From Eledone cirrhosa (taxonomy: Eukaryota), in contig OZ024742.1 of the NCBI GenBank assembly GCA_964016885.1, positions 38,812,001-38,876,000 of the forward strand: a DNA stretch of 64,000 nucleotides, given 5' to 3'. The translations under genes were made by a program, and so were the position numbers. The notes under the pieces were generated by a model, which saw nothing but the letters and a program-made list of their open reading frames with translations, was not told the origin of the DNA and did not search any database. Within the stretch, counting starts at the first letter, position 1; each line of letters opens with the position of its first letter. Shown here in pieces: positions 1 through 62,450 of this stretch.

Positions 1-93
1 TAGTCCTGTGGAAGCCATTTCTATATTAAATATTGCATATACTCTACTATGTATTGAGTACCTTACCCCCCACCCCCCGATTGAACCCGGGAT
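1..93 (+). mobile_element. 3' end plus tail of an HHR-bearing element (same family as 59906-60860), running into (TA)n
   Basis: TAGTCCTGTGGAAGCC..CTATATTAAA and TATACTCTACTATGTATTGAGTACCTTAC..CCGATTGAACCCGG match 60829-60858 and the reverse complement of 59913-59974. Confidence 0.75.
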
Positions 94-389
94 GTATATA
101 TATATATATATATATATATATATATAGTTTAGCGAGGTTTTTTATATGAAATCGTGTGTCGAAACAGATATTGTTATACTTGGGGAGGGTCATATTTGCG
201 TAATATTGCCAGAATTAATAACAGAACACACTCACTATTTGGTTGGTTTTCGCTTCTCGCTGTCTTTTATATCTGCGATCTAACTTACTCGGTCCTCAAT
301 GTTGCCATTGACTGACCGACGGTCAAAAACAATACAGATACAATATAGACACAAACACATATATATAGTTTACATAATTTACATAAATC

Positions 390-417
390 TTTCGTTGCAC
401 ATCTGCAACATCGTCAG
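390..417 (-). ncRNA. Hammerhead-like core in the PLE 3' region (left arm)
   Basis: Reverse complement of 6328-6355: CUGACGA-U-GUUGCA-gaug-UGCAAC-GAAA; stems I and III not convincingly resolved. Confidence 0.5.
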
Positions 418-703
418 TGGTGTTATATTTTTTCTTTTTTCCTCCTGTTGTGTTGTATGTCTACGCCATTTTTTATTCAGTCTGTCTATATATTTATTTA
501 TTTATTTGCTTGTTTGTTTATTTTATTTTGTCTTCTTTGCGCATGCGTTTGCGTGTGTGTATAGTGTTATGTGTGTGCTGTGTGACTAGTGTGTATAGTG
601 TTGTGTCTGCTGGGTGACTAGTGTGTGTTTATGTGCTTGTTGTTATTGTGCTTGTGTATGTATTTATTTATCTTATTTTATTTTATTTTATTTATTTACT
701 TAT

Positions 704-59991: not shown

Positions 59992-60042
59992 AGATTCTAC
60001 AGGACTAGAACTGTTTCATTCTTTAGAAATCATCAGGAATCT
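59992..60042 (-). ncRNA. Type I hammerhead ribozyme (left arm)
   Basis: Reverse complement of 60794-60844. Confidence 0.85.
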
Positions 60043-60793
60043 AGCTGTCCAAAATAAGTGTTGTGGTATTTATATCTTTTCAGGTGGTAGGAGAGGGTGG
60101 GGAGTGGGATGGGTGGAGGTCATTGGTTGAAAGAAAAGGGAATTCATTAAAAGCTAATACTTTAAGGCAATAATTTATATTTAGAGTGACAAAGGCAGAA
60201 AGAATTCTATAAACAAGTTCAAATTGGAGTGCCACTCCTTATTTTTAAGTTTCTCTTAAGCTAACAATGCCTATATTTCAGGTGTCTATAAGAGGGTTGG
60301 GGGTCGGACATGGTTGATGGATTTAAAGAAAAGGGAAATTCTTTAAAAGCTAATTCTTTAAAGCTCTACTTAGAGTGACAAAGGCCAAGAGAATTCTATA
60401 AACCAGTTCAAATATTGGGTGCCTATCATTATTGTCATGTTTCTCTTAAGCTATATTCCAGGTGTCAACAGACACACACACACACACACACATACACACA
60501 CACACACACACACACACACACACACACACACACACACACACACACACACACACACACACACACACACACACACACACACACACACACACACACACACACA
60601 CACACACACACACATATATATAAATATACACATATACAAACATATACAAACAATTCTACAGATATACACATATATACACATATACAAAATGAATTCCCTT
60701 TTCTTTCAACCAATGACCTCCACCCATCCCAATCTCCACCCTCTCCTACCACCTGAAAAGATATAAATACCACAACATTTATTTTGGACAGCC

Positions 60794-60844
60794 AGATTCC
60801 TGATGATTTCTAAAGAATGAAACAGTTCTAGTCCTGTAGAATCT
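60794..60844 (+). ncRNA. Type I hammerhead ribozyme (right arm)
   Basis: AGAUUC-CUGAUGA-U-UUC uaaa GAA-U-GAAA-CAG uucuaguc CUG-UA^GAAUCU: all three stems and the core present. Confidence 0.85.
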
Positions 60845-62450
60845 CATCTATATTAAAACTATATATATATATATATTAGTAGAACACTGGTAGGTTATAT
60901 CCGTAGTAGTAAAGCACTCAGTCTATGTGACGAGTTTGGTAGAAGTAGTTCCACAACAGTTAATTCGTCATTTCCGAGAACTTATTTGGTAATTACTTTA
61001 ATGAATAATTTGCTTCATGCGTAATTATTATTTTTAACATAATAGGATTTGTACACATGCTTGTTTGAAAAATATCTTTCAAAGAAAGTCTTTTGTACTG
61101 TATATTATAATGAATTACTGTATTTTGAGCTGTTTGAACTTCTCCACCTACCTCCTTCCAATTTTTGATATTGTTTTTATAAAAAACAATATTTTTTTTC
61201 ATATATATATATATATATATATAATGGCTGCAAACTCTGCTAAGAGTATTGCAATCGCTAGTTATATTATAGAGTTTGGTGCACTTTTAGGCTACAGCCA
61301 GCCACACGAACCTGTAACATATCCTGAACAAGCAATGCCTGTGCTTTGAAGGATTTTTTAAGTGGGGAAAGGCCTTGTACTCGACTAATCCCACTCTCTG
61401 AACATCGAAAACACTACCCGAAAAGGAGAACTAGTCGACATCATCGGATGCTTCCGAAGCCGTAGGTTTTTTTCAGAGTTTCCCTCTCCTAGATCCCCCT
61501 TTCCAAAAATATATGATAGTGAAAATAGCTGGAATCAGTGGTTGTACATTATACTAAATCTAAAGCTTAGTGTATTCATCCATGCGTGCAAATATACATA
61601 TATAGACGCACACAAGCATATATATAATTTGATTGCACTGTTTTGTTTCCACTTATGTATCTTTTTGAAAATGATAGCATCCTATATGTAGGTGGGCCCC
61701 ACATTTTTAGACCTAGTCCGCCACTGTATATATATATATATATGTCTGACAGACAACCTTTTCCCCCACCCCGGAAAAAAACCCCAGTTGATGGATGTGA
61801 ATCCGAAATATATAGGGACTATTAAATCTCTCCCAAGGTAACTCTCTCTTGTGTTGTTATTTTTATTTTATCCTTTATACTCTTCCCTTCATTCTACACA
61901 TATCACACATCTTATGCACACCACGCATCTCAACATACACCCACTTACATCTCTCTCTCCACCACCGGACCTTGTTACCCGGAGATTTACCCATTTGCAT
62001 TGTCGAGGCTTCCAAACGACTTAAAGATATTTACTTATTGTTCCACAATGCTTCAAGCAAACTTCAATACTCTCATATATATATATATATATATATATAT
62101 ATATATATATATATATATATATATATATATATATATATATATATATATATATATATATATATAATGCCAATTATTGAATGTTCGAATCTAACTGACATGC
62201 AAAAACATATATATAGGAATAAGGTAACCTCAAATCATAGTAGATTCAAATATCACAGATAGAGAGAGAGAGAGAGAGAGAGAGAGAGAGAGAGAGAGAG
62301 AGAGAGAGAGAGAGAGAGAGAGAGAGAGAGAGAGAGAGAGAGGGTGGGTGGTGGTGGAACAGAAATGAAACATGGATAACAGGTTAAAATATAGTCTAGA
62401 TAGATGTGAAGCAAAACGAGGATGTAGTTTATGGAACACCCAAATGATTT

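Follow-up and report, generated by a model that had tools for sequence, protein, structure and literature searches.

The enzymes of Penelope-like elements (PLEs) are relatives of telomerase. Here we analyse PLE insertions in a stretch of 64,000 nucleotides from the genome of Eledone cirrhosa (GenBank assembly GCA_964016885.1, contig OZ024742.1, positions 38,812,001 to 38,876,000), referred to as the window, and in further loci of the same genome. Much of the anatomy of such insertions has been described. Published PLE insertion units (Craig et al. 2021, PMC8557442; Arkhipova et al. 2013, PMC3846280) include 5'-truncated copies with a head-to-head inverted copy, a tail of 30-40 bp at one end only and partial tandems, with the 3' end running into the start of the next unit's frame, and they show a bias towards microsatellite targets, (TA)n in particular. 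The parts of these texts that we draw on call such features frequent ('often') or optional ('optionally') and leave the mechanism open; the origin of the inverted structures and one-sided tails is named there as an open question (PMC8557442). Minimal hammerhead ribozymes have been described in PLE repeats (PMC4209133). In vitro, PAc, the Poseidon element of the lizard Anolis carolinensis (Frangieh et al. 2024, PMC11167929), acts on both strands of AT-rich targets, cutting and extending them, and begins at two internal sites, which delimit the tail and lie inside the frame start. Its hammerhead is dispensable, as ribozyme mutants leave insertion unchanged, and its protein is predicted to be a dimer. 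Finally, retrozymes, non-coding RNAs with short tandem units, have been proposed as likely PLE passengers (PMC7229834; bioRxiv 10.64898/2026.07.22.740005).

Inverted copies, one-sided tails, hammerheads, the preference for (TA)n and the use of two internal start sites are thus already in print, and the architecture found here is mostly known PLE anatomy. The additions are a counted rule, by which one arm ends at a short and the other at a long site, and a non-coding family that carries the same signature. The pairing rule is apparently new: a literature search that missed most subscription papers found no near-strict pairing of long and short ends in arms that share private variants and sometimes do not overlap.

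Lopsided palindromes are common throughout the genome

Nine places in the window had been described, in an earlier note made from the sequence alone, as insertions of one architecture. All nine consist of two diverging arms with unequal outer ends, and represent seven families, here called A to G; three of the places belong to A, one of them to a subfamily. (TA)n lies on both sides at eight of the nine, family E lacking a TA run at its 41302 end. The arm with the long end exceeds the one with the short end by a tail of 41 bp in A, ~56 bp in the A subfamily, ~85 bp in B, ~55 bp in C, ~95 bp in D, 79 bp in F and ~74 bp in G. The tail of E reaches ~125 bp, compared with the published 30-40 bp.

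The genome searched comprises 3.0 Gb in 1796 contigs and is dense in microsatellites. We took a blind sample of 800 kb from five blocks picked without knowledge of their content, and counted the insertions of families A, B, D, F and G; family E gave no match there, and two family C matches with ambiguous partners were left out before the count. Of 46 insertions, 27 are head-to-head, diverging pairs (A 11/16, B 7/10, D 1/1, F 5/11, G 3/8). All 27 pairs combine one short with one long, tailed end, two of them needing an inverted-repeat scan to class an end and three being assigned by position alone, which tells against the strictness of the count. If each arm chose its end freely, the probability of 27 mixed pairs would be 0.5^27, or ~7e-9. 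The 19 unpaired ends are divided between long (9), short (7) and ambiguous (3). Published accounts leave the frequency of such structures at 'often', whereas here the pairing is counted; most copies here also differ from the published units in being stubs of the two ends only.

The same class emerges when families are disregarded. The blind sample holds 190 inverted repeats, 125 of which do not stem from two control repeats, leaving 100 after overlap merging. Of these 100 non-SINE (short interspersed nuclear element) inverted repeats, 30 are flush with (TA)n at one end and 25-130 bp away from it at the other; the background predicts ~1. The remainder comprise 3 with two flush ends, 3 with two tails, 16 with a single flush end only and 48 with neither. 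The 30 flush-and-tailed repeats form 14 sequence clusters and carry an outward hammerhead core in 16 cases and an inward one in 1. Their density, about one per 27 kb, means that stubs in the Eledone cirrhosa genome can pass for miniature inverted-repeat transposable elements (MITEs) or microRNA hairpins. (TA)n adjoins 56 of 68 element ends, family A included. Among random positions the figure is 3.6%, and a control SINE, which shows no adjacent diverging pair in 117 copies, has (TA)n at 11 of 80 ends.

Genome searches, confined to the best candidates of each family (at most 40), agree with the sample. An inverted arm is present in 24 of the 30 best-matching A loci (22 short, 1 long, 1 broken), a set selected for the tail. 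The family A query held the tail and the family F query part of the inverted arm, and both sets were excluded from the frequencies. Raw Illumina reads of two other sequencing runs contain the family F strand-switch joints, and ~3000 and ~2500 reads in these runs carry the F short end into (AT)n. For the family A 3' end the read support is weaker than for F, with three strand-switch joints among those listed and few start points. The palindromes are therefore real, common and genome-wide. The earlier view that palindromic integration is usual is borne out, as is the (TA)n enrichment, and the arm ends are not randomly distributed.

Other observations, too, weigh against a strict rule. The best-match sets of A and F are biased by their queries. 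Both arms are long in the palindromes at loci L210 (A), L037/L050 (B), L163 and L165/L166 (both F), and D locus L337 may hold a short-short palindrome. As 19 of the 46 sampled events have no partner arm, pairing is either not obligatory or the partners have been lost.

Arm ends lie inside the template

End positions fall at two sites in all seven families. In the tandem copy of family A at locus L020, the ends are followed by the beginning of the next unit's frame: counted downstream from its ATG, the short end lies at 26 nt, the long one at 69 nt and a third at ~83 nt. The long end of family G lies 45 nt before the ATG of the next tandem unit, and both end sites of family C are inside a tandem unit. 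Where tandems exist (A, C and G), both ends are thus internal to the template and neither is an RNA terminus. On these grounds the RNA 3' terminus, which the earlier note had assigned to one of the two primers, was rejected as an arm end. The hammerhead cut site was likewise rejected as an arm end: the ends lie 20 to ~215 nt 3' of the cut site or core, so the ribozyme does not set them.

Element and target overlap by 1-5 nt. The UA/AUAU microhomology proposed for the second primer is typical and not required, as some G ends overlap by a single T. The position of the ends recalls PAc, in which, as far as the available parts of that paper go, the start site does not differ between strands and no model of inverted copies is given (PMC11167929). 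In the insertions described here the two sites are used together, one for either arm, and the TA overlap is short.

Arms, junctions and a possible mechanism

The arm with the short end sometimes reaches further 5' than the tailed arm: in family A at window position 13382, at L211, L218 and L220 and twice in L358, in B at L207, in D at L183 and L184, and in G at L093. In B L207 and a number of the A loci, it extends 400-2100 bp beyond its partner. At locus L254, two family F arms without common sequence meet at a 3-nt overlap. Fold-back of a single cDNA cannot produce either arrangement. The 29 family A junctions listed are made up of 15 with 1-8 nt of overlap, 2 blunt joints and 12 with 2-44 nt of filler.

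The arms of a palindrome share their history. Eighteen young A arm pairs have 28 non-majority bases in common (17 without the window copy), against 1.1 expected from other loci. In 15 old C palindromes there is little excess, with 39 common variants against 28.5 and 312 differences against 329. As A arms share variants and old C arms scarcely do, a common source is indicated rather than later homogenisation. Homogenisation of the arms after insertion was not seen in the 15 old C pairs; in A it is conceivable.

We consider it fairly probable that these insertions arise by coupled twin priming, in which the two strands of a (TA)n target are nicked and each serves as primer, at two fixed sites within a single tandem RNA. 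A tandem read-through RNA would be bound where the next unit begins, probably by an enzyme dimer, and the endonuclease would nick both strands within (TA)n. One 3'-OH would prime at the downstream site and give the tailed arm, the other at the upstream site and give the short arm, with 0-5 nt of TA pairing helping. Both cDNAs would extend towards the 5' end of the RNA, with the leading one displaced by the one that trails it, and would stop early, often at the structured hammerhead region. Their 3' ends would be joined via microhomology or filler, and host repair would make the second strands. The hammerhead would be carried along without a role in setting the ends. The fixed, TA-flanked ends and the long-short pairing fit the twin priming from both (TA)n strands that the earlier note had suggested, with the sites moved away from the RNA 3' terminus.

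In L1 twin priming, the second target strand primes internally and the resulting inverted 5' part is joined by microhomology. The first L1 primer makes use of the poly(A) end, the position of the second is variable and there is hardly any overlap between the arms. The insertions described here differ in that both sites are internal and fixed, and the arms usually copy the same region.

Several points count against coupled twin priming. In vitro, the lizard PLE shows no strand difference in its start site (PMC11167929), so nothing yet forces one long and one short arm. Arm overlaps of up to 2.8 kb need strand displacement or a second copy of the template. The common variants establish that both arms stem from one locus; they do not establish descent from a single molecule. 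Finally, the young A and old C pairs compared above belong to families that differ in age and length.

A rival reading is that both strands prime on two separate RNAs held by a dimer, with the asymmetry set by the protein complex. Such a reaction needs no strand displacement over arms that overlap by up to 2.8 kb, and it agrees with the predicted dimer (PMC11167929) and with the rare long-long cases. However, the private variants common to the arms, far above controls, mean that both RNAs must stem from one locus, and an extra rule is needed for the 27 mixed pairs out of 27. We regard it as improbable.

Next in order comes self-priming on an antisense transcript, giving a hairpin of head-to-head arms that is cut back by the endonuclease at two fixed sites and then inserted, a model proposed in PMC3846280, here combined with the idea of resolution by the endonuclease from PMC8557442. 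It accounts for the head-to-head geometry, the variants common to both arms and the near-palindromic F junctions, and, as either arm can be trimmed, it tolerates further-reaching short arms and arms that do not overlap. We nevertheless think it unlikely: the sole in vitro PLE system primes on a nicked target with sense RNA, at starts matching the tail ends (PMC11167929), and 12 of 29 A junctions contain filler instead of a fold-back overlap.

A single cDNA from the long site that folds back, copies itself as DNA and stops before the tail would suit the junction overlaps of 1-8 nt and the longer tailed arm of most A loci (a query-biased set). The short-end arms that extend 400-2100 bp further 5' and the arms without common sequence contradict it as a general mechanism, which makes it very unlikely in that role; it may explain some copies.

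Even less can be said for a guild of independent non-coding hammerhead RNAs, or retrozymes, that borrow the PLE enzyme and are primed once at the RNA 3' terminus, as the earlier note had in part envisaged. Short hammerhead-bearing copies predominate, non-coding family C shows the signature, and retrozymes have been proposed as PLE passengers (PMC7229834; bioRxiv 10.64898/2026.07.22.740005). However, B, D, E, F and G lead, in the upstream direction, into reverse transcriptase (RT) and GIY-YIG frames of their own, the only non-coding family, C, lacks a hammerhead, and the ends are internal to the templates. The idea is largely refuted for the seven families and, as a general account, highly improbable; some unnamed clusters among the 30 flush-and-tailed repeats may be retrozymes. 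An artefact of the assembly or the library, DNA transposons of MITE type, or the meeting of two independent insertions in one TA run can be dismissed with near certainty, since, although TA runs are hot spots that collect many insertions and Illumina libraries can form fold-back chimeras, the unequal ends are fixed in element coordinates, the junction differs per locus, the arms are 70-99.7% alike by age, and both the strand-switch joints in raw reads of two other runs and the lack of diverging pairs among 117 control SINE copies speak against it.

If coupled twin priming is true, an RT that takes both strands of the target as primers, at fixed sites within the template, would represent a route of integration in its own right. 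The pairing rule makes the question of PLE inverted structures simply testable in the existing in vitro system.

Six of the seven families are 3' ends of coding PLEs

As each of B, D, E, F and G has its own frame upstream, six of the seven families (A, B, D, E, F and G) are, judged from their sequences, 5'-truncated 3' ends of their own coding PLEs. The earlier note had named as a counter-case that every small family is the truncated 3' end of its own ordinary PLE with mostly non-palindromic copies; the first half describes B, D, E, F and G, while the copies are not mostly non-palindromic.

Family A has a single open frame in the window (704-3958, - strand) encoding an RT with a GIY-YIG domain at the C-terminus. 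The RVT_1 match in Pfam (E 1e-4) is below the family cut-off, and Pfam gave no match to the GIY-YIG part, in which a GIY-YIG core with CCHH can be read from the sequence. The protein has 308 relatives at E<=1e-20, many of them unnamed, the top named match being 68% to an Octopus vulgaris protein. Its true start lies ~160 codons upstream of that of the window copy, as seen in the tandem copy L020; partial tandems (pseudo-LTRs, after long terminal repeats) occur at L210 and L217. The putative zinc fingers, a CX4CxxC linker and CCHH, are of Neptune/Nematis type. Neptune/Nematis elements are marked by a CX2-5CxxC linker with CCHH and by fingers without an insertion, and in the family A RT motifs A and B stand 132 residues apart. 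Comparable long insertions have been reported for PLEs with an N-terminal endonuclease (PMC8557442), whereas the family A endonuclease is C-terminal. The frame also contains a long Asn-rich tract, as in rotifer PLEs (PMC3846280).

The left arm of family B at L207 carries RT and endonuclease and ends in the B short end. Coding continuations were seen for D at L312, L182 and L185 and for F at L308 and L314, and loci L142 and L145 join an endonuclease C-terminus to the E end. In family G, loci L288/L289 hold a near full-length frame, followed by ~2.5 kb of TA/TG simple repeats (L288:5200-7750, inside the 3' untranslated region, UTR) and then the G end. G elements thus carry their own target sequence, and G-type elements may spread microsatellites. 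Family G had been taken as non-coding, as seven extended loci have no common unique upstream DNA at a constant distance, a view overturned by L288/L289. An exact pattern search for a G tandem continuation had given 0 matches before the full element was found there.

A CxCx5C linker and an endonuclease without CCHH are complete in D, E, F and G, and the single B copy lacks the first Cys. RWR and DKT motifs are present in F and G; the B, D and E copies end before these motifs. In the relevant parts of PMC8557442, the CxCx5C linker, the absence of CCHH and the RW(K) and DKT motifs mark the Hydra clade, of which Hydra-1_Obim has been recorded from an octopus. A Neptune label for B, D, E and F was dropped after this motif check pointed to Hydra. 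B, D, E, F and G resemble the Hydra clade in their C-terminal GIY-YIG without CCHH, their CxCx5C linker, RW/DKT where the N-terminus is present, their hammerheads and their (TA)n targets. They differ in forming several distinct families, recognised by motifs, and, for G, in the ~2.5 kb of simple repeats in the 3' UTR. As five families share Hydra-type protein motifs, the earlier count of at least six unrelated families is not upheld, even though there are seven.

Three further observations concern these families. At L307:2240-4460, a G short arm is joined to the 3' UTR of another Hydra-type family, a possible template switch between families. At L116:1900-3170, a third PLE type, ~25% identical to family A and Penelope/Poseidon-like by eye, is inserted beside a G end. 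A short GAGTGCT-like word lies between the short and long ends in the tails of B, C, D and E and of unnamed clusters, with a related word in F and G.

Family C, a candidate passenger

Family C (window palindrome 19806-20160) is a non-coding family with a 287-bp unit, ~87% identical to its own consensus and arranged in partial tandems that, in the loci examined, comprise at most about two units. The palindrome contains a tRNA-Thr-like segment (~19950-20027, - strand). ARAGORN reports tRNA-Thr(GGT) in this family only at lowered thresholds, and the Rfam tRNA model scores 19.8 bits in one copy, against a cut-off of 29. The sense strand of the consensus contains no hammerhead core, even with one mismatch allowed. 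Family C ends fall in two clusters ~55 nt apart and its 5' ends are scattered; copies run through from the preceding unit, with no fixed 5' end at the tRNA start. An inverted arm accompanies 13 of the first 30 loci, the window's included, and mostly sets short against long.

Family C is likely a PLE-mobilised, SINE-like passenger, moved in trans by the same machinery. Its flanks are decayed, and no autonomous partner was found, only a short motif like that in the B, D and E tails; both facts weigh against the proposal. Non-LTR retrozymes (PMC7229834; bioRxiv 10.64898/2026.07.22.740005) share with C the non-coding tandem unit, of ~290 bp in C, and the dispersed partial tandems. C differs from them in lacking a hammerhead and in having a tRNA-like segment, and the hammerhead-bearing families here are coding. 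No PLE passenger of tRNA type was found in the published literature covered, the 2005-2006 PLE reviews and most subscription papers lying outside the search.

More tentatively, it is quite possible that PLEs of at least two deep clades use a dedicated two-primer reaction, with a dimer on one RNA. The lopsided palindrome would then arise as the primary product, with the tail as the distance that separates the sites, and the same machinery would have carried a ribozyme-free, tRNA-containing tandem RNA, a SINE-like class with a PLE partner. Such a tRNA-like passenger without a ribozyme, if true, would broaden the set of RNAs moved by PLEs.

Hammerhead motifs

Most of the nine places carry a complete or partial hammerhead, as first noticed. 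The full core is present in four (127, 12083, 13382 and 59906), the GAAA half only in three (40330, 41302 and 55668), and two have none (19806 and 50835). The putative family A hammerhead is a minimal type I motif near the 3' end, with a core, an extra base before a 6-bp helix II and no clear helix III, which matches the published description of such motifs (PMC4209133). Candidate cores and helices can also be recognised in B, D, E and F. In family G a U-U pair at the base of helix II makes the motif fail the descriptor used.

Cores with helix II number 49 in the blind sample, 39 of them followed by TA, against 7-11 (0-2 followed by TA) for six mutated-core controls. An Rfam scan of the window returned no hammerhead among the 150 of 169 matches listed, which are hairpin or repeat noise below the cut-offs. 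Folding z-scores of six hammerhead stretches range from -2.2 to +0.75. Short F and G copies start in narrow zones of the hammerhead, in the helix II loop in F and in the 5' stem in G, which suggests that the RT stalls at the hammerhead region.

Palindromes and other features of the window

The largest palindrome is the family A PLE at the left of the window. Its long arm (127-3785, - strand) comprises the 5'-truncated RT and C-terminal GIY-YIG frame (704-3785) and the 3' UTR, with a minimal hammerhead core near 417 and the tail at 127-167. The short arm (3785-6577, + strand) is 99.5% identical to 168-2960, has a hammerhead core at 6328 (+) and ends at the short site; the arms overlap by 1 nt at the junction. 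A (TA)16 run (95-126) adjoins the long end and a (TA)11 run (6574-6595) the short end. Positions 1-94, running on into L224, belong to a G-related element, of which they form the 3' end and tail; its hammerhead is degenerate, and it ends in the same TA run as the family A long end.

A second, older family A palindrome (13382-14324) has a long-end arm at 13382-13565 (-) and a short-end arm at 13610-14324 (+), the latter reaching further 5', with 44 nt of G/GAC filler between them and a hammerhead core at 14091. The stub of the A subfamily (50835-51040) is short on the left and long on the right, with a 56-bp tail, and is too short for a hammerhead.

The family B palindrome (12083-12484), the 3' end of a Hydra-type PLE, has a long left and a short right arm and a hammerhead core at 12378 (+). 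Beside it lies a tenth element, absent from the earlier note, which belongs to family D (11335-12058, +) and consists of a long arm (11473-12058) with a complete type I hammerhead at 11861 and a broken inverted arm (11335-11470). A D-related palindrome (40330-40742) is long on the left and short on the right and has the hammerhead 3' half only. The family E palindrome, the 3' end of a PLE with a Hydra-type endonuclease, had been placed at 41426-41610. It occupies 41302-41610, as its long left arm extends by a tail of ~124 bp (41302-41425) to a point without a TA run; only the 3' half of the hammerhead is present.

The family F palindrome (55668-55850), the 3' end of a Hydra-type PLE, has a long left arm and a short right arm with an internal deletion, and retains helix III and the 3' strand of helix I of the hammerhead. 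The family G palindrome (59906-60860), long on the left and short on the right, has a hammerhead core in both arms; it is the 3' end of the Hydra-type PLE with ~2.5 kb of TA/TG repeats in its 3' UTR. Single family F-type ends lie in TA runs at 21432-21511, with a near-complete hammerhead, and at 24313-24436.

A small palindrome at 40966-41098 has the opposite geometry, with hammerhead cores inward and 3' ends joined; no copies of it were found in the 800-kb sample. Palindromes of a tRNA-like repeat, also joined at their 3' ends, lie at 9491-9897 and 62492-62867 and probably reflect two insertions meeting in one target, or another mechanism. Other inverted repeats, some MITE-like, are found at 12765-12853, 33978-34578, 36437-36508 and 56385-56568. 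Decayed frames at 22641-23693, 38069-38503 and 57848-58799 look by eye like fragments of non-LTR, LINE-like (long interspersed nuclear element) retrotransposons; Pfam gave no match to three pieces of them. At the right edge, 63064-64000 is a 77-bp tandem array of at least 12 copies at 98% identity, which continues past the end of the window.

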